46,124 nucleotides of DNA from Candidatus Micrarchaeota archaeon (GTDB taxonomy: Archaea; Micrarchaeota; Micrarchaeia; Anstonellales; Anstonellaceae), in contig JAZDHB010000025.1 of the NCBI GenBank assembly GCA_043806415.1, positions 1 to 46,124 of the forward strand, in the 5' to 3' direction. Of this stretch, positions 4,183-40,057 are shown piece after piece; positions within the stretch are counted from its first letter, which is position 1; the number at the start of each line of letters is the position of its first letter. Made by a program: the position numbers and the translations under genes. The notes under the pieces are model-generated. The model did no database searches. It was not told the origin of the DNA and saw only the letters and a program-made list of their open reading frames with translations.

Positions 4183-4219
4183 ATGATTCCACGGACTTCG
4201 CGCCCGCGCCTTTGGGCTC

Positions 4220-18585: not shown

Positions 18586-18736
18586 GCCGGTGTCGCATAA
18601 CCTGGTAGTGCGCTGGTCTTGAAGAAGCCTTTTCTTTCTGTGAAAGAAAAGCCTTCAGGGAAAAGAAAGTCCCGAAGGGAGGCTTCCAGATAACCAGTCC
18701 CTTACGGGATTGCAGGTTCAAATCCTGCCGCCGGCG
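18586..18736 (+). tRNA. tRNA-Ser(UGA), class II, with an approximately 68-nt intron at 37/38 (about 18624-18691; family member 3)
   Basis: GCCGGTG-TC-GCAT-AACCTGGTA-GTGC-G-CTGGT-CTTGAA[intron]A-ACCAG-TCCCTTACGGGAT(long variable arm)-GCAGG-TTCAAAT-CCTGC-CGCCGGC-G73. Confidence 0.85.
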
Positions 18737-19797: not shown

Positions 19798-19947
19798 GCC
19801 CTCGTAGCTCAGTGGTAGAGCGCCTGTCTCGTAAGCTTTTCTTTTCTCCTGCGGGAGAAAAGAAAACCTTGGAAATGAAAAGAGAAGCATCGGCTTTCTT
19901 CTCTTCGGGATAACAGGAGGTCACGAGTTCAAATCTCGTCGGGGGCT
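19798..19947 (+). tRNA. tRNA-Thr(CGU) with an approximately 78-nt intron at 37/38 (about 19834-19911; family member 4)
   Basis: GCCCTCG-TA-GCTC-AGTGGTA-GAGC-G-CCTGT-CTCGTA[intron]A-ACAGG-AGGTC-ACGAG-TTCAAAT-CTCGT-CGGGGGC-U73. Confidence 0.9.
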
Positions 19948-20024
19948 AAACTTCGTTTAGCCAGCCCGACTTTGAGCCTGCTGGCTCAAATCCCGCCAAC
20001 TGTTGTTGGCGGTCGTCGGGGGCT
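19948..20024 (+). repeat. 65-nt hairpin mini-insert plus a 12-nt duplicate of the tRNA-Thr 3' end
   Basis: TCGTCGGGGGCT occurs at 19936-19947 and at 20013-20024. The insert has hairpins TTTGAGCC-TGCT-GGCTCAAA (19971-19990) and CCGCCAAC-TGTT-GTTGGCGG. Confidence 0.8.
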
Positions 20025-20053
20025 TGCGAAGAAAAGTTAAACTTCAATATCGA

Positions 20054-20749
20054 CTATCTGACTATGTTTGAACGATAGTAGCTACAAGTAGCATAATTTA
20101 CGCGAAATTGTGTGAATGGATAAGCGAATGTCCCGCCTCGTGACCCATCTGTATAATATTCGACAAAAAATACATTATCTCCGATTGAGCCAACTTTCTT
20201 TCCGAGCGGAAGCATTCGTCCCGTCTCATCGATAGATTTGTAGGGGTAATACGTCATATTAAATCCAGATATGTTTGATTCGGGTATAAGCTCCATCTCA
20301 ACAACCATCATTGTTTCAGAACCTAACTGTTCAATTTGTCCATTCGGCGAAATTTTAGTTTGATTTCGGCTGAGGGAGACGTCATAAAAATAATAAAAAT
20401 TCCTATTCTCTCCCGCATAAGTGCCATTAGCTACTCTTCCTGCCGGACCTCCAAGCGACCAGTCATTTGCATTTTTTAGGTTTGAAGATTGCATCCAATA
20501 CTCCTTTGGAAATGATGGCGCATCTCCATTATAATCTATGAAAAATGTCTGGACTGGGGCAAATGCATCAGTGCAATCTATGTAATCTCTGTTCAGTTTC
20601 ATCGCGCGGTCGACAGGTGGAGGTGTTTGTATTGTTCTTGGTGCAGTGTTGTCTATAGATGAACCGCTAGGAGCTGGTTGAACTACGTCTTTGAGTACGC
20701 ACCCGAAAAGGAGGGCAAGTGCAAATATCGAAATCAAAACAACTCGCAT
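20054..20749 (-). CDS. Putative lipoprotein or secreted protein, hypothetical (islet cargo)
   Basis: Signal peptide with a lipobox-like LLFGC. The protein is Asn/Tyr-rich and A/T-rich, unlike the host genes. Confidence 0.65.
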   Translation of the reverse strand: MRVVLISIFALALLFGCVLKDVVQPAPSGSSIDNTAPRTIQTPPPVDRAMKLNRDYIDCTDAFAPVQTFFIDYNGDAPSFPKEYWMQSSNLKNANDWSLGGPAGRVANGTYAGENRNFYYFYDVSLSRNQTKISPNGQIEQLGSETMMVVEMELIPESNISGFNMTYYPYKSIDETGRMLPLGKKVGSIGDNVFFVEYYTDGSRGGTFAYPFTQFRVNYATCSYYRSNIVR

Positions 20750-20786
20750 GGAAAATTCACCACTTAGATCTTTTATCTTTTTGTCA

Positions 20787-21092
20787 TTATTTCGAGTCTA
20801 ATGCCTCTTGTAGTTCTCGCTCTGCGGTTTCCCAATCTCCTCCTTGAGTCAATAGACCGAGAAGAATTCCGCCAAACAAAACGATGTTGATTGTGTTGAA
20901 CCGTCCGAACTTCTCAACTATCTTACCTTCTTCATCTAAACCAAAATAAAGAGTTCTATAAAAAAATACACGTATCGCCTCGATATTATGCCCATCTTGG
21001 GAAAGAGAAACATCAAACTTTCCACTTGCTTTTAGCTTGTCGATTGTTTTTTGCATTTTTTTATTCTCGGTAAGATCGCCCGTCTTTTCCAT
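20787..21092 (-). CDS. Small hypothetical protein with one TM (islet cargo)
   Basis: 101 aa with the hydrophobic segment INIVLFGGILLGLL. Confidence 0.5.
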   Translation of the reverse strand: MEKTGDLTENKKMQKTIDKLKASGKFDVSLSQDGHNIEAIRVFFYRTLYFGLDEEGKIVEKFGRFNTINIVLFGGILLGLLTQGGDWETAERELQEALDSK

Positions 21093-21310
21093 AAGAAACT
21101 AACCGAATTGTTATATATTAATCAATCGCCAAGTGAGAATGACCTCCAAATATGGGCAAACAACGAGTTTTTAATGTCATAAGAAAACCAAACTATAACT
21201 ATCTGTTCAAATCTCGTCGGGGGCTTAAACACATCCCGGAATCAAGTTGAAGAAAAAGAAAAACAAAAAGAGAAACGCCGGATAAAATAGAAAAATCCGG
21301 GCCCGAAAGC

Positions 21311-25511: not shown

Positions 25512-25892
25512 ATGAGAACCGGCAGGACGAACCCCCGCAGCCGCCCGGTGAAAACCATCGGCATGGGCGGGGCGGTCGAAGAACCCGAGCATGGCGCGCG
25601 CTTCCACATCCTTTTTCTCATCTGGCGGCTGCATGAGCGGCCCACGTACGGATATGCGCTCCTGCAGGAGATCCGGGAGATGGCCGTGGGGCACAAGAAA
25701 ACCTCCACCATCTACGCCACCCTGGGCAAGCTGGAGAAGGCGGGGCTGGTGAAAAGCCGGATGGAGGAGAAGGGGGCCCGCATGCGCAGGCTTTACCAGA
25801 CCACCGCGAAAGGCTGGGCGCTCTTTGGGCGCGTGAGAAAGAGCATGATCCACGGCACGCTCAAGGAATTCATGAAGGCGCTGGCGGGATAA
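25512..25892 (+). CDS. PadR-family transcriptional regulator
   Basis: The winged-helix pattern ILFLIWRLHERPTYGYALLQEIREM...IYATLGKLEKAGLVKS...RRLYQTTAKG is present. Confidence 0.8.
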   Translation: MRTGRTNPRSRPVKTIGMGGAVEEPEHGARFHILFLIWRLHERPTYGYALLQEIREMAVGHKKTSTIYATLGKLEKAGLVKSRMEEKGARMRRLYQTTAKGWALFGRVRKSMIHGTLKEFMKALAG

Positions 25893-25960
25893 GGGGCGGA
25901 ATCGGAAGAGATCTGTTTTTCCTTATTCTAGATTTGTTTTTCCTTATTCTTTATCTCTTC

Positions 25961-27625
25961 CTAGAACCGGTCTCTTTTAGTGTATCTCGTGTGCAGGAGC
26001 AGCTCCGCCTTCGGCCCGCCCGGCTTTCCCAGGTATTCGGCGTACAACTTCTTCACGGTCGGGTTCTCGTGCGATTTGCGAAGCGGCATGCCCGCGTCGG
26101 CCTTGTAGATGGCCTCCGTCCGTTTTCGCAGCGTGTCCTCTTCCTTGTAGATGGGCTGCCCGCCCCCGCCGATGCACCCGCCCGGGCAGGCCATCATCTC
26201 TATGAAATGGTATTTGTCCTTCTCTTTCAGCAGCCGCTCGATGTTCGCGCCGCCGTGCGCGGCCGCGAAGCGGATCTCCTTTCCGTTGATGAGGATCGAG
26301 CCGGTCTTGATGCCCTTCACCCCCCTCAGCTGGTCGAATTCGAGCCGGCTGACCGCCTGGCCGGTGGCCTTTTCATATGTCGTGCGCAGGGCGGCCTCCA
26401 TCACCCCGCCTGCGGCCCCGAAGATCACGCCTGCCCCGGTCGAATTCCCGAGCGCCGGGTCGAATTCTTCGTCGGGCAGGTTTACAAAATCGATGTTCTT
26501 TTGCTTGACGAGTCTTCCCAGCTCGCGCGTGGTGAGCACAAAATCCACCGCTGACGAGAGCTCGGGTCGGGTGGATTCGAACTTCTTGGCCGTGCAGGGC
26601 ATGATGGACACCACGACGATGTCCTTGGGGTCGAGCCCGGCCTTTTGGGCGTAATAAGTCTTGATGAGCATGCCCAGCATCTCGTGCGGGCTCTTGCAGG
26701 TGGACATGTTGGACATGAGCTCGTGGTGGAAATGCTCCATCATCAATATCCAGGCGGGGCAGCAGGTGGTGATCATGGGGAACGGCCCTCCATTTTCCAT
26801 CCTTCTCATCAGTTCGGCCGACTCTTCCATGATGGTCAAATCCGCCCCCAAATCAACGTCGAACACCTTGTGGAACCCGCACCGCCGGAGCGCCGCGACC
26901 ATCTTGCCCGTGACGAGCGTACCGGCCGGCAGGCCGAACAGCTCGCCCAGCGCGGCGCGGATCGAGGGGGCGGTCTGGGCGATGACCTTCTTTTTCCTGT
27001 CTTTGAGCGCGGTCATTACCTCCTCCAGATGCGAGCGCTCGGAGATGGCGCCCACCGGGCAATGCAGGATGCACTGGCCGCACTTGATGCAGGCCACCTC
27101 GGCCAGCGCCCGCTCGTCGTATGGCGTGACGTGCTCGTTGTGCGCCCGGCTGGCAAAGTCGATGGCATATATGCCCTGGATCTGGGCGCACACGGCCACG
27201 CACCGACCACAGTTGATGCACAGGTTATTGTCCCGCACCACGGCCGCGCCCAAGTCCGGCTGGTAATTCCTGATGTTCGCAAATCTCGAATTGCCCATGC
27301 CCACCTGCTTGTAGATCTTGCACACCTCGTAATCGTCGAGGCGCGAGCAGGCCGGGTTGGGCACCATGAGCTCCATGTTCAGTTTGCGGGCCTTGAAGAT
27401 GCGCTCCGAGCGGGTGAGCACCCGGCAGCCCTCCTTCGGTTGGGTGGAGCAGGCGGTGACGAGCTTCCCGTCCATCTCCACGAGGCACACCCGGCACCGG
27501 GCCTCCGGCTTGAGGCTAGCATGGTAACATAGGGTCGGGATGTCGGCGCCCTGCTCGGCGCAGATCTTCAATAGGCTTTTGGAGCCGTCCGCCTCGATCT
27601 CTTTTCCGTCCAGCGTGATTTTCAT
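25961..27625 (-). CDS. hydA: [FeFe]-hydrogenase catalytic subunit (HydA, multi-FeS M3-like architecture)
   Basis: All three H-cluster motifs are present: TTCCPAW (L1), MPCTAKKFE (L2) and EMMACPGGCIGGGGQP (L3). N-terminal 2Fe-2S cysteines (CYH..CRVC..TAC). Two ferredoxin motifs, CINCGRCVAVC and CIKCGQCILHCP. I chose the start MKITLDGKEIEA (ATG 27625). The track ORF extends to 27823. Confidence 0.9.
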   Translation of the reverse strand: MKITLDGKEIEADGSKSLLKICAEQGADIPTLCYHASLKPEARCRVCLVEMDGKLVTACSTQPKEGCRVLTRSERIFKARKLNMELMVPNPACSRLDDYEVCKIYKQVGMGNSRFANIRNYQPDLGAAVVRDNNLCINCGRCVAVCAQIQGIYAIDFASRAHNEHVTPYDERALAEVACIKCGQCILHCPVGAISERSHLEEVMTALKDRKKKVIAQTAPSIRAALGELFGLPAGTLVTGKMVAALRRCGFHKVFDVDLGADLTIMEESAELMRRMENGGPFPMITTCCPAWILMMEHFHHELMSNMSTCKSPHEMLGMLIKTYYAQKAGLDPKDIVVVSIMPCTAKKFESTRPELSSAVDFVLTTRELGRLVKQKNIDFVNLPDEEFDPALGNSTGAGVIFGAAGGVMEAALRTTYEKATGQAVSRLEFDQLRGVKGIKTGSILINGKEIRFAAAHGGANIERLLKEKDKYHFIEMMACPGGCIGGGGQPIYKEEDTLRKRTEAIYKADAGMPLRKSHENPTVKKLYAEYLGKPGGPKAELLLHTRYTKRDRF

Positions 27626-27627
27626 CA

Positions 27628-27734
27628 GATCCTCTTCCCCGTCAAAATCTTCTTTTTCGCATCCGATCCTTTTCCTCATCCGATTCTCTTCTCCGTCAAA
27701 TTCTCTTTTTTGCATCCACTTCTTTTCCTCATCC
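27628..27734. repeat. Two tandem ~54-nt repeats filling the hydB-hydA spacer
   Basis: Unit 1 (27628-27681) is gatcctcttccccgtcaaaatcttctttttcgcatccgatccttttcctcatcc. Unit 2 (27682-27734) is gattctcttctccgtcaaattctcttttttgcatccacttcttttcctcatcc. Identity is roughly 80%. Confidence 0.85.
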
Positions 27735-28877
27735 AATCTTTTTCCGCTTGTTCGCGTACTCCTCGAAATCCTGCGGGAAATGGAGCATGGCGGTGAGCAC
27801 GTGGTTGCCCGAGGTCTGCCCAAGCCCGCACAAGCTCGTGGCCTGGATGTGCTCCGCCAGTTCCTGTATTGTTGCGAGGTCTTCGCTCCCGGCTTCCCCT
27901 TCGCGCACTTTCTTGAGCAGGTTGAGCAGGCGGATGTTGCCTTCCCGGCACGGGGTGCACTTCCCGCACGACTCGTACGCGTAGAATTTCGCGATGGAAT
28001 ACGAGATGTCGGCCACGTTGTGCGTCTCGTCGATGAAGATGATGGAGAACGCGCCGTGCTGGCACTCTTCCATCCGGATGCTTTCGGGCGTGAGGGCCAT
28101 ATCCTCGTCCACGGGCATAATGCCGCCGAAGCATCCGAACGACATCGCCTTAAGCTTTCTTGCGGGTTTGGCCAGCCGGACGAGCTGGGAGACTTTCACC
28201 CCGAGCGGAAGCTCGTGCACGCCGGGCCTTGACACGTTTCCGGAAAGCGAGAACAGGCGCAGGTCCGCGTTCCAGTCGTCGTAGAGCAGGGCCTGGGGCA
28301 CGCATGCGAACGTTTCCACGTTGTTGATGACCGTCGGCTGGCCCCAGAGGCCCTCGGTCGTTGGATACGGCGGCTTGAACATCGCCCGCCCGGGGAAGCC
28401 CATGATGGACTGGAGAATGGCGGTCTCTTCGCCGCAGATGTACGCTCCCGCCCCGCGCACGATGGTGATGGACACGTCCAGGCCGGATTTTTCCACCAGC
28501 CTCCCGGCCGTCCTCTCCAATCCCTTGCGCAGGAATTCGTATTCGCCTCGCAAATAGATGAAGCATTCCTTCGCGCCCAGCACGTACGCCGCGATGAGCA
28601 CGCCTTCGATCACTGCTTGCGGGTTCTTTTCCAGGATGAGCCGGTCCTTGAAGGTGCCCGGCTCGCCCTCGTCCGCGTTGCAGATGATATACCTCGTATC
28701 CGTGTTCACGCCCAGAGCCATGCGCCATTTCTTCGCGGTGGGAAAGGCCGCGCCGCCCCGTCCGACCAGCCCTTTCTTCTCCAGGAGTTGCAGCACGCCT
28801 TCCGGCCCGAGCAGGCGCGCTTTCCTGAGCGCCCGCATCCCCGTCTTGCGAAGAATCTGCATCATGGACATCTGCAC
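27729..28877 (-). CDS. hydB: NuoF-like flavoprotein subunit of the hydrogenase (HydB), short form
   Basis: GRGGAAFP (NADH site), NADEGEPGTFKDR and YICGEETA (FMN site), and ESCGKCTPCREG...LCGLGQ ([4Fe-4S]). At 382 aa it lacks the extra N- and C-terminal ferredoxin-like domains. Confidence 0.9.
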   Translation of the reverse strand: MQMSMMQILRKTGMRALRKARLLGPEGVLQLLEKKGLVGRGGAAFPTAKKWRMALGVNTDTRYIICNADEGEPGTFKDRLILEKNPQAVIEGVLIAAYVLGAKECFIYLRGEYEFLRKGLERTAGRLVEKSGLDVSITIVRGAGAYICGEETAILQSIMGFPGRAMFKPPYPTTEGLWGQPTVINNVETFACVPQALLYDDWNADLRLFSLSGNVSRPGVHELPLGVKVSQLVRLAKPARKLKAMSFGCFGGIMPVDEDMALTPESIRMEECQHGAFSIIFIDETHNVADISYSIAKFYAYESCGKCTPCREGNIRLLNLLKKVREGEAGSEDLATIQELAEHIQATSLCGLGQTSGNHVLTAMLHFPQDFEEYANKRKKIG

Positions 28878-29360
28878 CTATCTGGCCTTGCTTTTTTTGT
28901 CCGCACGCCGCGCCTGTTTCGTGCTGCTTTTTTTCGTCCGCAGGCCTCTGATCACTTTGCATATCCGGGCTTTCGTGAGTTCGGTGCAGGGCTTCCCGTC
29001 GACCAGCATGGCTGGCGCGCCGTCGCAGCAGCCGATGCACGAGGTCTTGTATAGGCTGATGCGCCCGTCGGGCGTGGTCTCGCCAACCCGGATGCCCAGC
29101 TCCTTCTCGAGGCATTTCTCGATGCCGGTGCCCCCGTTGAGCACGCAGGAGGGCGAGCCGCACAAGTCCAGCGTATGCTTGCCTTGCGGCCTTGTCTTGA
29201 GCATGGAATAGAAAGTGGCCACCGCGTAAACTCGGGAAATCGGGATGTCCTCTTCCGTGCTGATGCGCTTGAGCGCCTCTTCGGAGAGGTAGCCGTGCCT
29301 TTCCTGCGCCTCGTGCAATACGTTAAGCAGGATCCTGCGCTTTTTTCCGGCCATATCCAA
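28878..29360 (-). CDS. hydC: NuoE-like [2Fe-2S] subunit of the hydrogenase (HydC)
   Basis: DLCGSPSCVLNG and SCIGCCDGAPAM thioredoxin-like 2Fe-2S motifs. Start is TTG at 29360 or ATG at 29354. The gene abuts hydB. Confidence 0.85.
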   Translation of the reverse strand: MDMAGKKRRILLNVLHEAQERHGYLSEEALKRISTEEDIPISRVYAVATFYSMLKTRPQGKHTLDLCGSPSCVLNGGTGIEKCLEKELGIRVGETTPDGRISLYKTSCIGCCDGAPAMLVDGKPCTELTKARICKVIRGLRTKKSSTKQARRADKKSKAR

Positions 29361-29491
29361 CGTCTCCCAACTTCCCGGCTCGGATTACTGTTTTTTTATT
29401 ACCAGACGGTGCTCACTCTTATAAAATAACCGGCCGAAGGAAGTACGGCGCGTCCGAGGCGAGCGCATGGACTTCAGATGGAAGTGGTGGC

Positions 29492-30061
29492 ATGGGCTTT
29501 GAATTGAATTTCATCCGCAAGAACGGTTCGCCCTTCTCCTCATGGCATCTTTACGACTACGAGCTTTCCGCCATGCAGGAGAACCTCGAGATGGCCGTCT
29601 ATTGCGTGGTCTGCTTCTTCCTCCCCTTTTTCCTGTCCGAGCAGCTCGTGCTGGGCACGCTCGTGAACGCGGGCCTCGTGCTGGGTGCGCTCAACCTGCG
29701 CGGCTGGAAAGTGCTGCCCGTCATCCTCCTGCCCAGTTTCGGCGTGCTGGCGGCCGGCCTCCTCTTCGGCTCGTTCACCTACCACCTCGTCGCGCTCATC
29801 CCGGCCATCTGGGTCGGCAACGCGCTCCTGGTGTGGGCGGTCAAGGAATTCGCGCTCACCAAAAAGATGAACCGGCTCCTGGCGTTGGGCGTGGGCATCG
29901 GCTCGAAGGTGGCCTGGCTGTTTGGGATCACATTCGCGCTTGTTTCGCTCGGCTTCGTGCCCGCGATGTTCCTGACGGCGATGGGCCCCGTGCAGCTCTA
30001 TACGGCGGCGGCCGGAAGCGTGCTGGCGCTGGGCGCGCAGGAAATGAAAAAGAGGATATAG
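29492..30061 (+). CDS. Polytopic membrane protein (about 5 TM), function unknown
   Basis: Five hydrophobic segments. No family assigned with confidence. The start is uncertain, with internal Met at 29573. Confidence 0.55.
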   Translation: MGFELNFIRKNGSPFSSWHLYDYELSAMQENLEMAVYCVVCFFLPFFLSEQLVLGTLVNAGLVLGALNLRGWKVLPVILLPSFGVLAAGLLFGSFTYHLVALIPAIWVGNALLVWAVKEFALTKKMNRLLALGVGIGSKVAWLFGITFALVSLGFVPAMFLTAMGPVQLYTAAAGSVLALGAQEMKKRI

Positions 30062-30140: not shown

Positions 30141-31181
30141 TCATTTTTTCTTCCCTTTTTTCATTCCGATCTCCTTGGCATTCACCACGTTGACCGGCTT
30201 CCCGGCCAGGAATCCCTCGACGTTCTCCAGGCTGGTGTCCACGATGCGCCGGAGCGCCTCCTGGCTGTTGAAGGCGTTGTGCGGCGTGATGATGACGTTG
30301 GGCTTGTTGTAGAGAATCTGGTTGGCCACCACGGTGCGCAAGTCGAACGAGCCCGAGAATTCGGGCGAGACGAGCTGCCTCTCTTCCTTGATGGCCCGCT
30401 CCTCCTCGAGCACGTCGAGGCCCGCGCCGCCGACGTGGCCGGAGAGGATGGCGTCCACGAGCGCCTTGTTGTCGATGAGTCCGCCGCGCGCCGTGTTGAT
30501 GAGGATGACGCCCTTCTTCATCTTGGCGATGGTCTCCTTGTTGATGATGTATTTCGTGCCGGGGGTGAGCGGCGTGTGCAGGCTGATGATGTCGGATTCA
30601 TTGAGCAGCTCATCGAGCGACACGGATTTGCAGGTGAGCAATTCCATGAGGTTCGCGTCCGCGTAGGGGTCATAGACGCGCACGTGCATGCCCAGGGCCT
30701 TGGCGGTCTTGGCCACGTGCGAGCCGATCTTGCCGAATCCGATGAGCCCCAAGGTCTTGTCCGCGAGATCGAAGGTGTGCAGGCCCTCGAGGGAGAAGTT
30801 GCCCTGCCGGGTGCGCTCCACCGACTGCACGATCTTCTTGGAGAGCGCGAGCATGAGCGCGAGGGTGTGCTCGGCCACGGTGTGCGAGCCGTAAGAGGGC
30901 ACGTTGGCCACCGGGATGCCCCGCTTCGAGCACGTGGCCAGGTCGATATGGTCGAATCCGGTCGAGAAGGTGGTGATCATCCTCAGTTTGGGCATCTTCG
31001 CCAGCTGCGCGGCCCCCACCCTGGAATAGATGAACACGCCCAGCACGTCCGCCTTCGCGGCATGCGCGACGTTCTTCTCGTCCATCGGCCCGTCGATGAA
31101 CGTCAGCGCGTGGCTTTTTAGGCAGCTCTTGACGTGGGCCCGTTCCCATTGCTCCAATTCATAGAACACGATATTCGCCAT
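30141..31181 (-). CDS. D-isomer-specific 2-hydroxyacid dehydrogenase (D-lactate dehydrogenase-like), NAD-dependent
   Basis: GLIGFGKIGSHVA Rossmann motif, INTARGGLID, and the catalytic ITPHNAF. I chose the start MANIVFYELE at 31181. The track ORF N-terminal extension overlaps the upstream gene. Confidence 0.85.
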   Translation of the reverse strand: MANIVFYELEQWERAHVKSCLKSHALTFIDGPMDEKNVAHAAKADVLGVFIYSRVGAAQLAKMPKLRMITTFSTGFDHIDLATCSKRGIPVANVPSYGSHTVAEHTLALMLALSKKIVQSVERTRQGNFSLEGLHTFDLADKTLGLIGFGKIGSHVAKTAKALGMHVRVYDPYADANLMELLTCKSVSLDELLNESDIISLHTPLTPGTKYIINKETIAKMKKGVILINTARGGLIDNKALVDAILSGHVGGAGLDVLEEERAIKEERQLVSPEFSGSFDLRTVVANQILYNKPNVIITPHNAFNSQEALRRIVDTSLENVEGFLAGKPVNVVNAKEIGMKKGKKK

Positions 31182-31273
31182 TTTTCCACCCCAAACTTTC
31201 CCATGTCCGTTTTTCTTTTCATACCCGCTTTCCACCGGCTTTCCCAAATCCAAAACATGCCATTTTTCTTCTT

Positions 31274-31882
31274 TCATAACTCGAATCTCACCCAGTCCGC
31301 ATTTTTTAACCTGCACTCCCAGAGCCGGGGCGGCCGGATCCCGCTCAAAAGGCTTGCGCAGGCGATGTCGAACACCCCGTGCGAGACCACGAGGATCCGT
31401 TTTCCAGGATGGGCTTTCCTCACCCACGCCAGGAAGCGCCGGGCTCTTCCCAGCACGTCGTTCCAGCTCTCGCCGCCCGGCACGGTCTTCAGGAAATGGC
31501 TCCGGCGGCCGTCCTCATAGGGGAAGAACCGCTCCGGGCGCTCTTTCACGAGCTTGAGCATGGAGTGGCCGCTCCAGTTCCCGCAGTCCTGCTCGGAAAG
31601 CAGGCCGAGCCGGATCGCCGCAAGGCCGTATCTTTTCTCGAAATAATGCGCCGTCTGCCTCGCGCGCTTAAGCGGGCTGGTGAAAATGATATCCGGCCTC
31701 TCCTTCCATCCTCGTGCGAGCGCCCGGGCCTCCGCCCGCCCCTTTCGGGTCAGGGGCGTGTCCCTCCTCGTCCCGTTGAGGATGTGGCGGGCGTTGCCGC
31801 CCGCGCGCCCGTGGCGTACCAGCCAAAGCTGGGTCTTTCGCGCCATCGTCCTCGTCATCGTGGGATTTGTTTTCCTTCCCAT
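31274..31882 (-). CDS. Histidine phosphatase family protein (phosphoglycerate mutase-like), paralog 1
   Basis: LWLVRHGRAG RHG motif and VVSHG. TATA tttttaa lies about 30 nt upstream of ATG 31882. Confidence 0.8.
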   Translation of the reverse strand: MGRKTNPTMTRTMARKTQLWLVRHGRAGGNARHILNGTRRDTPLTRKGRAEARALARGWKERPDIIFTSPLKRARQTAHYFEKRYGLAAIRLGLLSEQDCGNWSGHSMLKLVKERPERFFPYEDGRRSHFLKTVPGGESWNDVLGRARRFLAWVRKAHPGKRILVVSHGVFDIACASLLSGIRPPRLWECRLKNADWVRFEL

Positions 31883-33767: not shown

Positions 33768-33889
33768 GCCTTGGCTTTCCCCATATACTTTTAAAGATTT
33801 AACACCGAAGAGAATACCATACTCTTTACCTGCCGGAACAGCGAAAATTTCCGCCAAAGGGAAAACGAGGCTTGAACCGAGGTTATCTT

Positions 33890-36088
33890 ATGGTCCGCAA
33901 AGAATACGTCGTGGATGAAGTCCAGAAGATGATGAGCAACCTGACGAACGTGCGCAACGTGGCCATCTGCGCCCACGTCGACCACGGCAAGACCACGCTC
34001 ACCGACTCGCTCGTGGCCCGCGCCGGCCTCATCTCCAAGGAGACCGCCGGCGAGCAGCGCATGATGGACTTCGACGAGCAGGAGCAGGCCCGCGGCATCA
34101 CCATCAAGGCGGCCAACATATCGCTCGCCTTCCAGCTGCGCGAGAAGGACTACCTCGTCAACCTCATCGACACGCCCGGCCACGTCGATTTCGGCGGCCA
34201 CGTCACGCGCGCCATGCGCGCGGTGGACGGCGTCATCCTGGTGGTCGATTCCGTCGAGGGCGTCATGCCCCAGACCGAGACCGTGCTGCGCCAGGCGCTA
34301 AAAGAGAAGGCGCGCCCCTGCATCTTCATCAACAAGATCGACCGGCTGGTCAACGAGCTGCAGCTCACCGACGTGCAGATGCAGCAGCGCCTGCTCAAGA
34401 TCTTCGCCCAGATCAACAAGCTCATCGAGCAGTACGCCCCGCCCGAGCAGAAGGAGAAATGGCTCATCGACGTCAAGAAGGGCACCATCGCCTTCGGCTC
34501 GGCCTACCACAAATGGGCCATCTCCACCAAAGCGATGGAGCGCTTCAACATCAAGTTCGCCGACATCTTCAAGTACTGCCGCGAGGGCGAGGAAGGCCAC
34601 AAGACCCTGCGCGAGAAATCCCCGCTGGATGAGGTGCTGCTCGACATGATCGTCGAGCATTTGCCCTCTCCGGCGGAAGCGCAGCCGTACCGCATCCCGA
34701 CCATCTGGGCCAAGGGCGACATGGAATCCGAGCAGGGCAAGTCCATGCGAATGTGCGATGCCAACGCCAAGACCATCGGCGTGTGCGTCGGCGTGGTCAA
34801 CGACCCGCACGCGGGAGAGGTGGCCATCGTGCGCCTCTTCGCCGGCCGGGTGCGCAAAGGGGACATGCTCTACCTCGCCGCTCGTTTCGCTTCCGAGAAG
34901 GTGCAGCAGGTGGCCATCTACATGGGCCCCGACCGGGTGATGGTGGACAACGTCGTCGCCGGAAACATCGTGGGCATCGTGGGCCTGCGCGACATCTATG
35001 TCGGCGAGACCGTGTCCGACGGTCCGTGCGAGCCTTTCGAGCAGATCAAGCACTATTCCGAGCCGGTCGTCACGAAGTCGATCGAGGCCAAGGATTCCAA
35101 GGAACTGGCCAAGCTCATCATGGTGCTGCGCGCGCTGGCCAAGGAGGACCCGACCCTCAAAGTCGAGCTCAACCAGGACACGGGAGAGCACCTCATCTCC
35201 GGCATGGGCGAGCTGCACCTGGAGATCATCGAGTACAAGATCACCAAGGAGAAGGGCGTGGCCATCACCACCTCGCCCCCCATCGTCGTCTACCGCGAGA
35301 TCATCAGCGGCAATTCCGGCGTGGTGGAAGGCAAGTCGCCCAACAAGCACACCAAGCTCAAATTCGAGGTCGAGCCCCTGCCCGAGACCGTCATCAAGGC
35401 GTTCGACGAGGGCAAGATCCCCGAGGGCAAGCCCAAGGGCAAGGTGCTGGTCGAGACCCTGGTCGAGGCGGGCCTGCCCCGCGACGAGGCGAAGAGCGTG
35501 GTGGACATCCACAACCGCTCCATCTTTATCAACGACACGCGCGGCATCCAGTACCTCAACGAGATCATGGAGCTCATGATCCAGGGCTTCGAGGAGGCGC
35601 TGGACAAGGGGCCCCTGTGCAAGGAGCGGGTGTTCGGCGTGAAGGTGAAAATCATCGATGCCACCATCCACGAGGACCCGGTCCACCGCGGCCCGGCCCA
35701 GATCATCCCGGCCACCAAGCGGCCCATCTACGCGGCCCTCCTGTACGCGGGCGTCACCTTGCAGGAGCCCAAGCAGAAGATCACCATCCTCGTGCCCGGC
35801 GACTACATGAGCAACGTCATCACGCTCGTGCAGGGCCGGCGCGGCACGATGCTGGACATCCAGCAGGAAGGCGAAGGGGCCACGCTCGTCGCCAAACTGG
35901 CCGTGTCCGAATTGTTCGGATTCTCCAACGACCTGCGCAGCGCCACGCAAGGGCGCGCCATCTGGTACCAGGAATACGCCGGATTCGAGCCCCTGCCGCG
36001 GGAAATGCTGCTCAAGACCGTCAAGCAGATCCGCGAGCGGAAAGGGGACAAGCCCGATCCGCCGACGCCCGCCGACTTCCTGGAATAA
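33890..36088 (+). CDS. fusA: Translation elongation factor aEF-2
   Basis: AHVDHGKTTL and DTPGHVDF. The diphthamide-site motif HEDPVHRG has its His codon at 35684-35686. GAGGT lies 7 nt upstream of ATG 33890. The track start at 33872 is a TTG. Confidence 0.95.
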   Translation: MVRKEYVVDEVQKMMSNLTNVRNVAICAHVDHGKTTLTDSLVARAGLISKETAGEQRMMDFDEQEQARGITIKAANISLAFQLREKDYLVNLIDTPGHVDFGGHVTRAMRAVDGVILVVDSVEGVMPQTETVLRQALKEKARPCIFINKIDRLVNELQLTDVQMQQRLLKIFAQINKLIEQYAPPEQKEKWLIDVKKGTIAFGSAYHKWAISTKAMERFNIKFADIFKYCREGEEGHKTLREKSPLDEVLLDMIVEHLPSPAEAQPYRIPTIWAKGDMESEQGKSMRMCDANAKTIGVCVGVVNDPHAGEVAIVRLFAGRVRKGDMLYLAARFASEKVQQVAIYMGPDRVMVDNVVAGNIVGIVGLRDIYVGETVSDGPCEPFEQIKHYSEPVVTKSIEAKDSKELAKLIMVLRALAKEDPTLKVELNQDTGEHLISGMGELHLEIIEYKITKEKGVAITTSPPIVVYREIISGNSGVVEGKSPNKHTKLKFEVEPLPETVIKAFDEGKIPEGKPKGKVLVETLVEAGLPRDEAKSVVDIHNRSIFINDTRGIQYLNEIMELMIQGFEEALDKGPLCKERVFGVKVKIIDATIHEDPVHRGPAQIIPATKRPIYAALLYAGVTLQEPKQKITILVPGDYMSNVITLVQGRRGTMLDIQQEGEGATLVAKLAVSELFGFSNDLRSATQGRAIWYQEYAGFEPLPREMLLKTVKQIRERKGDKPDPPTPADFLE

Positions 36089-36830: not shown

Positions 36831-36947
36831 GAAAAAAATCAGGCGCCCGGCGTATCGCCACTCGTTTTCCCGGCCGTCCCGCAGGCATCCGGTTTTCGCA
36901 ACGCCTTCCTCTGTTTTTTTGGAATCTCCTGGTTTTCAGGCCTGCCC

Positions 36948-37763
36948 TCACATCCCGGTCACTTCCTTGGCCTGGGCCAGGAAGATGGCGATGAGATAGA
37001 CGCCATAAGCGGCCAGGAACAGCATCCCGCCCGTCCGCACCAGGCGCCGGTCGGTTGCCGCGGCGTAGAAGAGCAGGATGTTGGCGGCCAGCGTGAGCAT
37101 GTAGGACACGCTTTTTTCCATCAGGTGGCGCAGCACGAGCAGCCAGGTGATGGCGGCCAGGATGCCGGCCACGATGGCGACCGAGAAGGCGGAAGCCAGC
37201 AAGCCCGCCACGGCCACCGGGTTGATGGGCACGTTGGCGGCGATGAGCTGGATGAGCACGATGGCGCTGATGATGCACAGCGAATCGGTGAGGGCGGATT
37301 CGAGCGTGAGCAGGTTGCGCGTATCGGGCGAAATGGAAGCCTTTTCCACCAAGGTGATGACGATGGTCGAACAGGTGCCGCCCAGCACGGCGCCCAAAAG
37401 AAGGCCCGGCAGCAGGCTCCATCCCAAGCCGGTCCATGCCAGCAGGGCCACGCCGGCCACGGTGAGCACGAAGGTCAGGGCCGTGAAGGCCACGGCCTTG
37501 GGGATGGTGCGCACAAACTGGAAAATCGGCAAGCTGATGCCGCCGTTGAACAACATGATGACGAGCGCCAGGGCCCCGATGAAGGGGGCGAGGCCGGCCA
37601 GCACCGAACCGGGCCCGGAATCCACCACGTGCAGCAGGGGGCCGAGGATGAAACCCAGCGCCATGAGCACCAGCACGGACGAGATGCGCGTGCGCTCGAA
37701 GATGAGGTTGGCCGCGAATCCCGAGAAGAGGATGATGCTCAGGACGAGGAACAGTTCATACAT
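36948..37763 (-). CDS. Cation:proton antiporter family membrane protein, short (271 aa; possibly truncated)
   Basis: The N-terminus LIFERTRISSVLVLMALGFILGPLL resembles Na+/H+ exchanger family openings. It has about 8 TM segments, fewer than the 10-13 I would expect. Confidence 0.6.
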   Translation of the reverse strand: MYELFLVLSIILFSGFAANLIFERTRISSVLVLMALGFILGPLLHVVDSGPGSVLAGLAPFIGALALVIMLFNGGISLPIFQFVRTIPKAVAFTALTFVLTVAGVALLAWTGLGWSLLPGLLLGAVLGGTCSTIVITLVEKASISPDTRNLLTLESALTDSLCIISAIVLIQLIAANVPINPVAVAGLLASAFSVAIVAGILAAITWLLVLRHLMEKSVSYMLTLAANILLFYAAATDRRLVRTGGMLFLAAYGVYLIAIFLAQAKEVTGM

Positions 37764-38026
37764 GGCCGATCACGCCCTTTGAACGGGCCGGGTGTTTTTA
37801 TTCGTGCCTGTCTTGCGCCTATCGTTTCCCTCGGCAACCGGGCGTGGATGAAAATGAGCGCCCCAGCCGGGCTTTAGACAAAAAGTGCCACTTTGCAACT
37901 CTTAGACGTTCAAATCCCGACAAAATCAATGGAAATAAAGGCATTTTCGACTCCAACCTTCTATCTCAGACTTCTTCTACTTAAAATTAGTCGAACGGCT
38001 TTCCAAACAGGGATTCGGTTTTCCAT

Positions 38027-38605
38027 TTATGCGCCATTTTTGTCCAGACAGCATTTCTTATACTTCTTTCCTGAACCGCAGGGGCAGGGCTCGTTGCGGC
38101 CTATCTTGCGAGGAAGCGGGGCGGTCGGCAATGACGTTTTTCCAGCCGTGCCGATATCTTCATATTCGGAAACGGGAGTCAGATGAGAATGCTCGACCTC
38201 TTTCTCCGTGAGTATCGCGATGAATTTTAGGCATTCTTCCTCGTTGGCCGAGAAGAAGATTGCTCCCTCCACGACCTCAGCGAAGAACTTCGCGCCGAGC
38301 AAGCCAGATGCAATCTGATCATCTTCGTCATAATACGGGCTTCCCTCTTCACCCATGCGGCTCATATCCATTTGGATTTCGGCAAGCGGGCGCCAAGCCA
38401 ACTCCCGTTCGACTTTCCCGCCCCGCATCCTAAATACCCTGATGTCCTGTCCTTTGGCGTATTTGAAGAGGAGTTCGATTATTTGGTCATGATCGAAAGA
38501 TTTCTTCTGAGTGAAATCAAGAATTACCTCGAAATAATAGTCGAAACCGAAGATTTGCTCGAGCTCCTCATAGGGCTTACCAGTCAATTCCATAAACGCT
38601 CCCAT
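38027..38605 (-). CDS. SEC-C motif protein with an unknown N-terminal domain (islet cargo)
   Basis: C-terminal [16 protein letters not shown]. The start codon directly abuts the stop of the upstream ATPase gene. Confidence 0.7.
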
Positions 38606-39841
38606 TCAACCGGATTTTTCATCCGCCTTTTCCGTCATCCATTTCCAGGCCGGCACCATCTTGACTTTGCGCCCGTCCACTCCGAAATGGTCTTCCTGTT
38701 CCAGCGTGACAATCGTCCCTTCATCCAGCCTGAATTTCTTCATGGCCAGAACAAGGCCGTCTATCTCACGCTGGCGGTTGCTGTCTTCCATCTTGTGGCA
38801 GACTTGGACGGCTGAGCTTATCCGCCCTTTCTGTTTGAGCAGGAAGTCGCACTCACCCGCTTCTTCTTTGTAATAATACAATTCCTTTCCCTGACGCCTC
38901 AATGCCAGAAATACGGCATTCTCAAGCATCCGGCCCTCATCTGCCGAGAAAGAAAGCGAATTTGCTCTCGCCAAACCGTTGTCTATGCAGTAGGCCTTCT
39001 TTGGGGCCACCAATTGCTTGGCTGGAGAGTAGTCGAAACCGGGCAGGTAGAAGAACAGGTAGCTGTCCTCCAGGTAGGTGCCATATTGCGTTATGCTGTT
39101 GGTGGATCCCGCGTCAAAGACTTTCCTCAAACGATTGTAGGAAAATTCCTTACCCACATTGGAAACCAGATGGAGCGCCATGTCCTTGAGCAGTTTGCCA
39201 TCCCTGATCGGGTATCGAGTCATGATGTCGCGCGATAGTATGTCTGCGAGCAACTCTTGCAAGACCTCGTCCCGCTCCTTTTTGAGATAGGCCGGGAATC
39301 CGCCTTCGCGCAGATAGCGCTTGGCGCTTGCGGCATCTGCCTTTATGCCTCGGAAAGACAGAAATTCAGAATATGAGAATGGGAAAAGCTCATACGTGAG
39401 GTGCCGACCCGTCAAGAGGGTGCCTAATTCCTTAGACAATAGAGAAGCATTGGAACCGGTGAGCACGAACTTCTTGCCCTTGCCCAAGGAGCCGCTGACA
39501 TAACGCTCCCATCCCTTGATGTTCTGAACTTCATCGAAAAGGCACAGCTCGGCCGGCCCGAATTCCTCAGTCAGGACCTCTTCCAGACGGTGGAAGTCCT
39601 GCGCCTCGAAACCCGCGAGACGGGAATCCTCGAAACTGGTGTAATGGAATTTCTTGGCCCGCTTTGCCAACTGGCGCAAAAGCGTGCTCTTGCCGCCCCG
39701 GCGCACACCAGAAATGACGGTGGCGAAATCAGCGTCCGGGCTTATCCCTTTGGTGAGCTGCCTCGGGAGGTCTTTTTCGTCCATCTCGAGATCTGCCCTC
39801 TGCTTTCGCACCACCTGCTGCATGGTTTCGACCGGTATCAT
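38606..39841 (-). CDS. AAA+ ATPase of the COG1373 type (AAA_14 + DUF4143-like) (islet cargo)
   Basis: Walker A GVRRGGKST and Walker B CLFDEVQ. I chose the start MIPVETMQQ at 39841 because the TATA ctttatatac lies about 25 nt upstream. The track ORF extends to 39892. Confidence 0.75.
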   Translation of the reverse strand: MIPVETMQQVVRKQRADLEMDEKDLPRQLTKGISPDADFATVISGVRRGGKSTLLRQLAKRAKKFHYTSFEDSRLAGFEAQDFHRLEEVLTEEFGPAELCLFDEVQNIKGWERYVSGSLGKGKKFVLTGSNASLLSKELGTLLTGRHLTYELFPFSYSEFLSFRGIKADAASAKRYLREGGFPAYLKKERDEVLQELLADILSRDIMTRYPIRDGKLLKDMALHLVSNVGKEFSYNRLRKVFDAGSTNSITQYGTYLEDSYLFFYLPGFDYSPAKQLVAPKKAYCIDNGLARANSLSFSADEGRMLENAVFLALRRQGKELYYYKEEAGECDFLLKQKGRISSAVQVCHKMEDSNRQREIDGLVLAMKKFRLDEGTIVTLEQEDHFGVDGRKVKMVPAWKWMTEKADEKSG

Positions 39842-40057
39842 GGCACTATTGAATCCTAGGAAGTATATAAAGGTGTGCAATATATCGCACACTTCTGTGC
39901 AGTATGATGAACACTACTGTGCATTAGTAATGCGCACTTTGCTGTTCTGTCATGTAATTCGATTACATGACAAATCCAAAAATGGTTCCCCCGCCTCTAT
40001 CTGATAAATGAGATCAAGGCCTAATATAATATGGTCTTTAGTGTATAAAAATGTATT

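Follow-up and report, generated by a model that had tools for sequence, protein, structure and literature searches.

We found that a 46,124-nucleotide stretch of archaeal DNA (the window) carries a hydC-hydB-hydA operon whose product is probably a streamlined heterotrimeric [FeFe]-hydrogenase. Its predicted cofactor sites point to a minimal, ferredoxin-independent NADH:H+ enzyme that would dispose of NADH as H2. The operon itself is not new, and the refinement offered here is one of mechanism. A protein 99% identical to its HydA is already in NCBI, and the DPANN trimeric clade, Micrarchaeota included, was published by Huang et al. 2021 (PMC8421398) and Greening et al. 2024 (PMC11216029), so the novelty of an archaeal [FeFe]-hydrogenase implied by a sequence-only reading of this DNA could not be upheld.

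The operon and its archaeal host

The three genes are consecutive open reading frames (ORFs) arranged head-to-tail on the minus strand, where the sequence-only reading had placed them. The features of the region are as follows.

25512..25892, plus strand: PadR-family regulator gene, convergent with hydA (Pfam PadR, 8e-14)
25961..27625, minus strand: hydA, 554 aa from its most likely start, catalytic [FeFe]-hydrogenase subunit (Pfam and NCBIfam matches)
27622..27745, no strand: hydB-hydA spacer, a tandem repeat of about 53 nt in 2.3 copies
27729..28877, minus strand: hydB, 382 aa, NADH/FMN diaphorase, NuoF-like and short, one [4Fe-4S] site
28878..29360, minus strand: hydC, NuoE-like thioredoxin-fold [2Fe-2S] subunit (Pfam 2Fe-2S_thioredx, 1e-42)
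29361..29491, no strand: hydC/6-TM intergenic region, 131 bp, divergent
29492..30061, plus strand: 6-TM gene, 189 aa, six-helix membrane protein
30141..31427, minus strand: NAD-dependent D-isomer 2-hydroxyacid dehydrogenase gene (Pfam 2-Hacid_dh_C 1e-57, 2-Hacid_dh 1e-30)

The hydA ORF spans 25961-27823, but translation most likely begins with the ATG at 27625 (MKITLDG...), which gives the 554 aa; homologues have 554-555 aa. A GAGG Shine-Dalgarno-like element precedes this ATG in the hydB-hydA spacer, which is 103 nt long as against 49 nt in a sister strain (L001) and whose repeat was detected with Tandem Repeats Finder (period 53, 80% matches, score 164). Read from a TTG start, the hydC product has 160 aa; an ATG at 29354, the start called in the near-identical contig, shortens it to 158 aa, the length called in L001 and L002. 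Upstream of hydC, the intergenic region contains a GGGAG element and an AT-rich TATA-like element, TTATTTTATAA, at about 29419-29429, and may be a putative promoter region shared by hydC and the 6-TM gene. The single TATA-like element makes an archaeal-style promoter at the operon plausible.

The source of the contig is a Micrarchaeota-like DPANN archaeon and the operon is chromosomal. Four proteins encoded on the contig exceeded their curated NCBIfam cut-offs, namely aEF-2 (1009 bits, cut-off 738), RLI/ABCE1 (771, cut-off 469), pelota (287, cut-off 178) and archaeal Dph6 (221, cut-off 197). Four tRNA genes of 120-155 nt each matched the full tRNA model, and the two that were inspected have anticodon-loop inserts of 70 and 80 nt, confirming the archaeal context previously read from aEF-2, RLI/ABCE1, pelota and intron-bearing tRNAs. 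The operon has a GC of 0.608 and a GC3 of 0.80-0.86, and its codon usage correlates with that of archaeal housekeeping genes at 0.75-0.91. The tetranucleotide comparison that had been suggested as a check on continuity gave no composition break at the operon (r between the operon and the remainder of the window is 0.93, and the window mean is 0.87). Composition and codon usage thus run unbroken across the operon, in agreement with the claim of host-like G+C and correct binning. Next to no probability attaches to the operon being bacterial DNA that mis-assembly brought into a contig or bin of archaea. In favour of this, group A [FeFe]-hydrogenases occur mainly in bacteria, and outside DPANN the closest HydA relatives come from Clostridia, with identities of at most 50%; against it, archaeal marker genes lie on both sides of the operon on a single contig, its composition and codon usage are the host's, and its gene order recurs in an independent 23-kb assembly (96-98% nucleotide identity) and in a Logan assembly. 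In addition, the contigs that bear the clade of 62-89% identity are all from DPANN, the longest reaching 742 kb.

This clade comprises more than 100 HydA relatives from Micrarchaeota, Woesearchaeota, Pacearchaeota and Nanoarchaeota. The closest named ones are micrarchaeal (89%, 78% and 73% identity); next come the remaining DPANN lineages, with identities of 62-72%. Besides these database proteins, 318 relatives were confirmed in genomic contigs. The hydC-hydB-hydA order is common to the window and the published DPANN systems.

Subunit architecture and the signature of HydB

Pfam analysis of HydA revealed Fer2_4, 2x[4Fe-4S] dicluster, Fe_hyd_lg_C (2e-92) and Fe_hyd_SSU domains, laid out as an N-terminal [2Fe-2S] site, two [4Fe-4S] sites, the H-cluster domain and a fused tail that resembles a small subunit. 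The H-cluster motifs TTCCPAW, MPCTAKKFE and EMMACPGGCIGGGGQP are intact in the translation, so that Pfam and translation agree with the earlier attribution of all three motifs and N-terminal FeS domains to this protein. All H-cluster ligands and proton-path residues are conserved, and the three motifs are kept in every complete DPANN-clade HydA checked (62-99% identity). Against the '[FeFe] hydrogenase, group A' model TIGR02512, HydA reached 489 bits and so passed the cut-off of 406; its best NCBIfam model was 'NADH-dependent [FeFe] hydrogenase, group A6', at 719 bits, under the curated cut-off of 765. HydC scored 132.5 bits against NCBIfam nuoE_fam, slightly below the cut-off of 142.4, and its translation shows the Cys pattern C-x4-C...C-x3-C. 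With these family matches and intact active-site motifs, the proposal of a genuine, apparently catalytic HydC-HydB-HydA operon was sustained.

The best solved relatives of HydA are T. kivui HydA1 (567 bits, the most similar), A. woodii HydA1 (526) and CpI (468). The (Cys)3His [4Fe-4S] site is degenerate in the window protein: the H-x3-C-x2-C-x5-C region reads VPNPACSRLDDYEVC, with no His and two Cys only. This site was absent from 28 of the 28 complete DPANN-clade HydAs checked and from five Aenigmatarchaeota-type ones, and was found in the HydA of all 50 bacterial neighbours.

HydB has the Pfam domains Complex1_51K and NADH_4Fe-4S only; missing from it are an N-terminal [2Fe-2S] domain, a zinc hinge and a C-terminal 2x[4Fe-4S] domain. 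Its alignment to Thermotoga maritima (Tm) HydB is confined to Tm residues 160-552, and its N3-type site consists of Cys304/307/310/350. The best solved match is the non-bifurcating NuoF of the Aquifex aeolicus complex I N-module (6HL2; 303 bits, about 42% identity), compared with 247-277 bits for bifurcating HydBs. The two proteins are of the same length class and share the NADH/FMN motifs NADExEPGTFKDR and GAGAYICGEETA and a single N3-type cluster; HydC likewise resembles NuoE, and the HydA N-terminus is NuoG-like. The acceptor in complex I is a quinone-reducing arm, whereas in the window enzyme it would be the H-cluster, and the latter has no membrane subunits.

Losey et al. 2020 (PMC7311640) defined a non-bifurcating signature as T at Tm232, K at Tm234, Y in the GAGA(F/Y) motif and no GGPSG. 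We found that the window HydB fits this signature: T75 and K77 align with Tm A232 and M234, Y stands in GAGAYICGE, and GCFGG occupies the position of Tm GGPSG 427-431. A short HydB (about 346-417 aa) occurs in the window and in all 29 relatives with a readable neighbouring hydB, in each case without the N-terminal domain, hinge and C-terminal domain and with the T, K and Y residues and no GGPSG; the readable DPANN-clade HydBs have T/K and GCFG(G), none with a C-terminal Cx2Cx2Cx3C motif. The full-length HydBs of the bacterial neighbours (HydA identity 50% or less) have 593-609 aa, with one of 695 aa, and every one has A/M, GGPSG or a one-residue variant of it, and two ferredoxin motifs; the features missing from the DPANN enzymes are all retained in their nearest bacterial relatives. 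On one Nanoarchaeota contig, the short-type operon lies next to a separate cluster with a long HydB, indicating that the two are distinct types and not interchangeable. In a neighbour-joining tree, the DPANN HydBs formed their own clade, apart from the non-bifurcating HydB of Syntrophothermus (39.5% identity), and the term 'non-bifurcating' therefore rests here on features and not on membership of a characterised lineage. GCFGG also differs from the motifs GGTSG, GGISS and GGNSG at this position in known non-bifurcating enzymes, the syntroph SLBB motif being GGTSG.

Proposed electron path, direction and maturation

The path proposed from cofactor sites and homology is as follows. The three subunits would assemble into one complex, in which the FMN of the short HydB would take up a hydride from NADH, and the single [4Fe-4S] cluster of HydB would pass the electrons on singly to HydA, where its N-terminal [2Fe-2S] cluster and its two [4Fe-4S] clusters would receive them. 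From there they would reach the H-cluster, where protons would be reduced to H2; the NuoE-type [2Fe-2S] cluster of HydC is predicted to be off-pathway. The core path from FMN through [4Fe-4S] and the HydA clusters to the H-cluster is shared with the bifurcating HydABC of T. maritima, Thermoanaerobacter kivui and Acetobacterium woodii (7P5H, 8A6T, 8A5E), whose subunits are homologous to those of the window.

In operational terms, HydDB assigns enzymes to group A3 by a trimeric hydA-nuoF-nuoE organisation, and on this criterion the DPANN clade was read as bifurcating A3 in three papers (PMC8421398, PMC11216029 and the Woesearchaeota study PMC11606122). The window enzyme belongs to the same clade and does not differ in kind from the enzymes labelled electron-bifurcating there. 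A true bifurcating or confurcating HydABC, oxidising NADH and reduced ferredoxin together to form H2, would also suit the best solved relatives of HydA, which belong to bifurcating complexes, and the nearest bacterial HydA relatives, all of which adjoin bifurcating-type HydBs. We nevertheless regard it as unlikely. The HydB of the window has neither the N-terminal [2Fe-2S] domain nor the zinc hinge nor the C-terminal 2x[4Fe-4S] 'bridge', its residues are T/K/Y in place of the A/M/F/GGPSG signature, and HydA is without the His-ligated cluster A4. These missing elements are those tied to bifurcation by cryo-EM (PMC9499530) and by Losey et al. (PMC7311640), and in the structural work ferredoxin is reduced at clusters B3/B4, in the C-terminal part of HydB (PMC9499530). 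The Nanoarchaeota contig with both cluster types also argues against bifurcation, as do the closeness of HydB to NuoF and the group A6 model as best NCBIfam match of HydA. Without the bridge, hinge, N-terminal [2Fe-2S] and His-ligated cluster, the enzyme is therefore most likely ferredoxin-free, and the clade-wide HydB and HydA architecture argues against the published label. The sequence-only reading had offered 'NAD(H)-linked or bifurcating group A3', of which the evidence favours the non-bifurcating option, since none of the domains and residues linked to bifurcation occurs in HydB. A second branch might in principle be regained through a ferredoxin-like partner whose gene lies elsewhere.

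The ferredoxin-free working proposed here resembles that of non-bifurcating NADH-dependent hydrogenases of syntrophs (Syntrophomonas wolfei, Syntrophus aciditrophicus), which share with the window T/K at Tm232/234, Y in GAGAY, the lack of GGPSG and a NuoE-like HydC. The subunit sizes and cofactors match those of S. wolfei Hyd1ABC (HydB of 43.9 kDa with one [4Fe-4S] and FMN, HydC of 17.5 kDa). In contrast to these enzymes, that of the window has an archaeal host and is known from genes alone, and its HydB is only about 40% identical to that of Syntrophothermus, in a separate clade. A NuoEF-type module also feeds an [FeFe]-hydrogenase in the hydrogenosomal, NADH-dependent Hyd-NuoE-NuoF of the anaerobic fungus Caecomyces churrovis (PMC13556243) and related eukaryotic systems. 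The Caecomyces complex, demonstrated biochemically, unlike that of the window, has no ferredoxin branch and no bifurcation centre, as proposed here; its NuoEF is of independent, mitochondrial complex I origin and its genes lie outside any operon.

The earlier suggestion of fermentative NADH-to-H2 disposal was judged plausible. The enzyme would regenerate NAD+ in fermentation, which would be feasible only if partners hold H2 very low. The reaction would in principle be reversible, as it is in [FeFe]-hydrogenases of this type, and an H2:NAD+ oxidoreductase forming NADH from environmental or host-derived H2 would run in the direction that is thermodynamically favourable at standard conditions; recombinant S. 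aciditrophicus HydAB is described as reducing NAD+ with H2 (PMC7311640). We consider such uptake distinctly improbable, however, as these DPANN are predicted obligate fermenters without NADH-consuming respiratory chains or CO2 fixation (PMC11216029), no uptake-linked partner genes lie near the operon in the window, and a Pacearchaeota relative has its operon amid GAPDH, PGK, TIM, PfkB and glycogen genes, a setting of NADH-producing glycolysis.

As the sequence-only reading had noted, hydE, hydF and hydG are missing from the window, where the ORFs scanned included no radical-SAM protein or HydF-type GTPase. The hydrogenase might thus be unmatured and the complex a relic, diaphorase or redox sensor, but this seems very improbable. 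HydA keeps its H-cluster ligands and proton-path residues, and the conservation of the motifs across the 318 genomic relatives and more than 100 proteins indicates purifying selection on the catalytic site. Furthermore, artificial maturation has given active enzymes from other groups of archaeal [FeFe]-hydrogenases, Asgard cultures without maturases make H2, and Woesearchaeota homologues are transcribed in situ (PMC11606122). Most archaeal genomes lack hydEFG (PMC11216029), and the published DPANN systems generally do as well. We infer that the cofactor of the window enzyme would mature without HydEFG.

Neighbouring genes

The PadR and 2-hydroxyacid dehydrogenase genes, which had been named as flanking the operon, were both located there by Pfam. 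The PadR gene adjoins the operon in L001 and L002 and not in L003-L006. The dehydrogenase ORF had no NCBIfam equivalog at cut-off; it is called as 363 aa in L001, and its true start is probably internal to the ORF. The enzyme could offer another route for consuming or supplying NADH. Both genes are conserved beside the operon in the closest strains only, and their adjacency therefore carries little functional weight.

The 6-TM protein had no Pfam match. Homologues of it were found within 6 kb of hydA, in varying orientation, in 16 of about 30 DPANN-clade loci and in none of 56 other loci. Its AF2 model (pLDDT 92.3) had as top Foldseek matches an S-component (5edl) and TmRibU (5kc0/5kc4), with probabilities of 0.84-0.93, TM of 0.47-0.62 and E about 1, hinting at a fold like that of ECF-transporter S components such as RibU. 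An uncharacterised 4-6-TM protein also neighbours the published DPANN operons, and the window gene is probably the 'hyd6TM' of Greening et al. 2024 (PMC11216029).

The hydCBA operon and its archaeal contig

Three minus-strand ORFs follow one another in the order hydC-hydB-hydA at 25961-29360 in the window translation, and the same contiguous arrangement is present in the loci of relatives.

25961-27823, minus strand: hydA ORF; start most likely at MKITLDG, giving 554 aa
27729-28877, minus strand: hydB, NuoF FMN/NADH domain and NuoF [4Fe-4S] domain only
28878-29360, minus strand: hydC, NuoE-type [2Fe-2S] protein

The HydA start was placed at MKITLDG because homologues are 554-555 aa long and a 554-aa product is called on a near-identical contig; on this comparison the 66 residues preceding it in the ORF are almost certainly not translated. 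HydA contains an N-terminal 2Fe-2S domain, a 2x[4Fe-4S] dicluster, Fe_hyd_lg_C (2e-92) and a fused small-subunit-like tail. With L1 TSCCPxW-type, L2 MPCxxKxxE and L3 ExMxCxxGCxxGGGQP as the criterion for group A, we found all H-cluster motifs in the translation (TTCCPAW, MPCTAKKFE and EMMACPGGCIGGGGQP), and the protein scored 489 bits with TIGR02512, '[FeFe] hydrogenase, group A', for which the curated cut-off is 406. The operon, the three motifs and the N-terminal FeS domains described in the sequence-only reading were thus confirmed by ORFs, translation, Pfam and TIGR02512, and HydA is predicted to be the catalytic subunit of a group A [FeFe]-hydrogenase. A non-catalytic Narf or sensory HydA-like protein, the alternative raised in that reading, was rejected because all H-cluster motifs are intact and Pfam found no PAS or sensory domain in HydA.

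hydC abuts hydB, and hydB is separated from hydA by 103 nt with a 53-nt tandem repeat inside. The repeat (27622-27745, period 53 nt, 2.3 copies) fills this spacer; the sister strain, on contig L001, has a single copy and a spacer of 49 nt, so that the repeat number is polymorphic between strains. In addition, two near-exact 21-nt units (AGATCTGTTTTTCCTTATTCT) lie at 25909-25950 in the convergent hydA/PadR intergenic region. The run, T-rich on the plus strand, may act as a PadR terminator, as a regulatory site, or as both.

The archaeal setting was examined using NCBIfam models and tRNA genes.

335-1396: pelota, 287 bits vs NCBIfam cut-off 178
1460-3223: RLI/ABCE1, 771 bits vs NCBIfam cut-off 469
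9495-10562 and 10966-12084, plus strand: two adjacent FtsZ paralogues
14015-14680: archaeal Dph6, 221 bits vs NCBIfam cut-off 197
33872-36088: aEF-2, 1009 bits vs NCBIfam cut-off 738
13642-13796, 18586-18736, 19798-19947 and 40058-40179: insert-bearing tRNA genes

The four tRNA genes are 120-155 nt long and each matches the whole tRNA model; inserts of 70 and 80 nt in the anticodon loop were confirmed in the two that were inspected. None of the four was detected by ARAGORN in default mode, which listed a single tRNA gene, the intron-less tRNA-Cys at 43363-43433. The operon has a GC content of 0.608 (GC3 0.80-0.86), its tetranucleotide usage correlates at 0.93 with that of the remaining window (window mean 0.87), and its codon usage correlates with that of the housekeeping genes at r = 0.75-0.91. 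Furthermore, the same genes in the same order, with 96-98% nucleotide identity, were found in a 23-kb NCBI contig (GCA_041643025.1) and in a Logan assembly. A chimeric or contaminated contig was rejected on the grounds of composition, codon usage and independent synteny. Because the archaeal markers, tRNA inserts, even composition and codon usage and independent collinear assemblies agree, mis-assembly or contamination at the operon is very unlikely, and the archaeal context and host-like composition noted from the sequence held up.

Other parts of the contig are less uniform. A low-GC island (19948-21308, ~0.41) lies immediately 3' of the intron-containing tRNA at 19798-19947; its ORFs (20054-20749 and 20787-21092) have a GC3 of 0.35 and a codon-usage r of -0.13, neither matched Pfam, and the island is missing from the 96%-identical L001. 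It has the look of a small insertion beside the tRNA. A 3.2-kb segment (~36832-40057), which abuts the tRNA at 40058-40179 and encodes a Na/H-exchanger-like protein, a SEC-C-motif protein and an AAA_14/DUF4143 ATPase, is also missing from L001, and throughout 37.4-46 kb GC is lower (~0.52) and tetranucleotides match less well (r 0.68-0.80); an integrated element may be present here. A 1680-aa ORF at 4220-9262 on the minus strand, unusually large for a DPANN genome, has a C-terminal HATPase_c as its sole Pfam match.

Features of HydB and HydA that bear on electron bifurcation

Losey et al. 2020 (PMC7311640) sorted beta subunits by four positions and Fe-S domain content. In T. maritima HydB (Tm) numbering, bifurcating subunits have A/E at Tm232, M at Tm234, F at a residue near the FMN site, GGPSG at 427-431 and more Fe-S domains, whereas non-bifurcating ones have T/S, K/S/A and Y at these residues, fewer Fe-S domains, and no GGPSG. 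In a cryo-EM study of T. maritima HydABC (PMC9499530), ferredoxin reduction was placed at two C-terminal HydB [4Fe-4S] clusters, carried on a mobile 'bridge' domain with a Cys3His zinc site as its hinge. Losey's supplementary alignment supplied the HydB sequences of T. maritima and Syntrophothermus. Losey's 'position 367' is not an F in the reconstructed T. maritima sequence, and F312 (GAGAF) and F337 (KPPF) were both checked; the Syntrophothermus sequence identified the GAGA(F/Y) position as the diagnostic site.

The window HydB, whose alignment is limited to Tm residues 160-552, has T75 instead of A/E at Tm232, K77 instead of M at Tm234, Y instead of F in GAGAYICGE, and GCFGG replacing GGPSG at 427-431. 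It has a single [4Fe-4S] site and ends 11 residues past the NuoF core, without the C-terminal ferredoxin-like 2x[4Fe-4S] 'bridge' domain, and the alignment contains no counterpart of the N-terminal [2Fe-2S] domain or the Cys3His zinc hinge (Tm ~553-570). At every position, and in Fe-S content, it has the form that PMC7311640 describes as non-bifurcating. Its best solved relative was the non-bifurcating Aquifex NuoF (303 bits), ahead of bifurcating HydBs (247-277 bits), and with a concatenated HydC+HydB query Aquifex NuoF variants took all top five places in the PDB.

The pattern extends through the clade. T/K/Y with GCFGG was found in 33 short-type HydBs (NuoF core only), whereas 31 long-type ones (T. 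maritima-like, with extra Fe-S domains) have A/M/F and either GGPSG or a motif one residue away from it. At every DPANN-clade locus with a readable hydB, the HydB adjoining hydA is 346-417 aa long, has T/K/Y and lacks the ferredoxin motif. All full-length HydBs of the bacterial neighbours are 593-609 aa (one 695 aa), with A/M/F and GGPSG or a one-residue variant; each has two Cx2Cx2Cx3C motifs, and the window HydB has none. HydA differs as well. The (Cys)3His [4Fe-4S] site that links HydA protomers (A4/FS4C; H-x3-C-x2-C-x5-C) is absent in the window, where the region reads VPNPACSRLDDYEVC; it is missing in 28/28 complete DPANN-clade sequences and present in 50/50 bacterial neighbours, and relatives of the window HydA keep 0-2 Cys at the site.

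L023, a marine Nanoarchaeota contig, seemed to be an exception with a long HydB beside a DPANN-type HydA, and was discarded as such when two clusters (419-4439 and 4497-7674) were recognized, since a short 372-aa hydB adjoins the DPANN-type hydA. The second cluster encodes a HydB of the long, bifurcating type (574 aa, with A/M, GGPAG and a pair of ferredoxin motifs) and lies directly upstream of the short-type hydC-hydB-hydA; therefore both kinds of HydB coexist in one DPANN genome.

Because the bifurcation features of HydB and the His-ligated site of HydA are missing, and the remaining set is like that of S. wolfei, electrons would most likely pass from NADH to the H-cluster along a single linear path without ferredoxin. 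HydC would contribute a [2Fe-2S] cluster, HydB FMN and one [4Fe-4S] cluster, and HydA a [2Fe-2S] cluster, 2x[4Fe-4S] and the H-cluster, giving a predicted total of FMN, two [2Fe-2S], three [4Fe-4S] and the H-cluster. This set matches the subunit composition of S. wolfei Hyd1ABC, which is biochemically proven to be non-bifurcating, save for the loss of one further cluster. Such an enzyme would be an unusually compact NADH-driven H2 catalyst, and the small predicted cofactor set makes it an attractive expression target. The sequence-only reading had offered 'NAD(H)-linked or bifurcating group A3'; the missing HydB and HydA features favour the NAD(H)-linked half over the bifurcating half, and the wording had been too cautious on mechanism.

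Bifurcation has on its side that the nearest solved relatives of the window HydA come from bifurcating enzymes. The HydBs of the DPANN clade formed their own clade in a neighbour-joining tree with few references, outside Aquifex NuoF, Syntrophothermus HydB and the bifurcating HydBs, and the non-bifurcating Syntrophothermus HydB is only ~40% identical to them. For this reason we propose that the window enzyme works like the characterized non-bifurcating lineage, not that it belongs to it. On the clade-wide comparison, the label 'bifurcating A3' is probably wrong for the DPANN enzymes. The broader proposal is a possibility that falls just short of probable: that the whole DPANN 'group A3' clade is misassigned and constitutes a distinct, minimal NADH-only lineage, with its own NuoF-like HydB clade, a HydA without the His-ligated cluster and often a hyd6TM partner.

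The best model for HydA was NF040763, 'NADH-dependent [FeFe] hydrogenase, group A6', at 719 bits, under its cut-off of 765, and two clade members (P0082 and P0109) carry the name NADH-dependent [FeFe] hydrogenase, group A6 at NCBI. The meaning of 'group A6' varies, being NADH-dependent in NCBIfam and PMC10579272 and 'acetogenic' in a 2026 preprint, and the label was set aside as a basis because of this inconsistent usage.

Relatives, earlier reports and physiology

NCBI holds a 99% identical HydA entry, and >100 cluster representatives among NCBI proteins lie at 64-78% identity. The named relatives there come from Micrarchaeota/Micrarchaeia, Woesearchaeota, Pacearchaeota, Nanoarchaeota and one 'Thermoproteota'. 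Among species-representative genomes the best matches were Micrarchaeota (89%, partial; 78%, partial; 73%), followed by further DPANN matches down to 62%, after which identity fell sharply to <=50% in Clostridia, Caloramator, Coprothermobacter and Aenigmatarchaeota. Because matches of 89-62% stay within DPANN before this fall, the window is assigned, on HydA identity, to a Micrarchaeota-like DPANN archaeon and its operon to a large, coherent DPANN clade. DPANN-type hydCBA was also found in records titled 'uncultured Methanosarcinales archaeon' or 'Pseudomonadota bacterium' (loci L012, L014, L018, L020, L026, L028 and L027), which are probably taxonomic mislabels or mis-binned contigs.

Trimeric [FeFe]-hydrogenases were described in Woesearchaeota by Huang et al. 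2021 (PMC8421398), who found them monophyletic with those of Micrarchaeota, Aenigmarchaeota and Nanohaloarchaeota and assigned them to group A3 with reversible electron bifurcation; another Woesearchaeota study (PMC11606122) showed transcription of homologues in situ. Greening et al. 2024 (PMC11216029) counted 130 archaeal genomes, spread over nine phyla, that encode [FeFe]-hydrogenases, with 'electron-bifurcating/confurcating group A3' HydABC the most widespread, in at least six DPANN phyla, and with all of HydEFG in only 5/130 genomes; the enzymes tested were monomeric A1, B and E types. Archaeal [FeFe]-hydrogenases were a real surprise at first report, and that point had been made in 2021 and 2024. 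The novelty implied in the sequence-only reading does not hold, because the clade is published and NCBI has the 99% identical protein: the window operon adds a further member to the archaeal [FeFe]-hydrogenase clade that is already the best populated. What is added here is modest, namely the clade-wide case against 'bifurcating A3' and a confident model of hyd6TM with a weak functional lead.

Under standard conditions, H2 evolution from NADH is endergonic. The H2 that recombinant S. aciditrophicus HydAB could maintain was limited to 2-40 Pa (PMC7311640). A DPANN fermenter with a window-type enzyme would, by analogy, need H2-consuming neighbours. If the enzyme is NADH-only, H2 evolution would be feasible only while H2 stays within a few to tens of pascals, and symbionts could release glycolytic NADH as H2 only under such very low pressure, which would make them energetically dependent on hosts or neighbours that consume H2. 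Reduced ferredoxin would need another outlet, with dependence on H2-scavenging partners, and revision would be needed for published DPANN metabolic models, in which a single confurcating hydrogenase balances NADH and ferredoxin. In a Pacearchaeota relative the operon lies amid GAPDH, PGK, TIM, PfkB and glycogen genes, a setting that fits a role in reoxidizing NADH from glycolysis. The PadR regulator and 2-hydroxyacid dehydrogenase previously noted as flanks are indeed neighbours in the window; they were dropped as functional partners and left out of the system because they are not conserved past the closest strains.

The six-helix membrane protein beside the operon

Greening et al. 2024 (PMC11216029) associated an uncharacterized 4-6-helix membrane protein, 'hyd6TM', with HydABC, and a candidate gene adjoins the window operon.

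29492-30061, plus strand: gene for a 189-aa six-helix membrane protein; a 131-bp AT-rich spacer separates it from the divergently oriented hydC

Its product is probably the hyd6TM of the literature. Of about 30 DPANN-clade loci, 16 have a homologue (34-78% identity) <=6 kb from hydA, at varying position and orientation; among other loci the count was 0/56. A profile search gave 779 family representatives (50%-identity clusters). Pfam matched none of 23 family members (13 searched at E <= 5 and 10 distant ones at E <= 1), and a PDB profile search with the protein gave no match. The AlphaFold2 model, built using database hits, was a six-helix bundle with a pLDDT of 92.3, and its top Foldseek matches were the ECF S components 5edl and TmRibU (prob 0.84-0.93, TM 0.47-0.62, weak E ~1). 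Import of flavin for HydB, or of a vitamin, would be a reasonable if weakly supported role for the modelled fold; alternatively, the protein might tether the enzyme to the membrane.

The context of distant members is mixed, some lying near VIT1/Isc genes or unrelated genes, and the family is for this reason not strictly dedicated to hydrogenases. On another contig, L090, the 6-TM gene lies directly upstream of a short hydB-hydA pair (5001-8650). The three genes follow one another, HydB being of the short type (354 aa) and HydA 589 aa long, and hydC is absent from the cluster. This contig also encodes a bacterial-type DNA ligase LigA and N_methyl pilins, and its source is probably a CPR/Patescibacteria bacterium; the presence of the cluster there indicates that the association of short HydB with the 6-TM protein extends beyond archaea.
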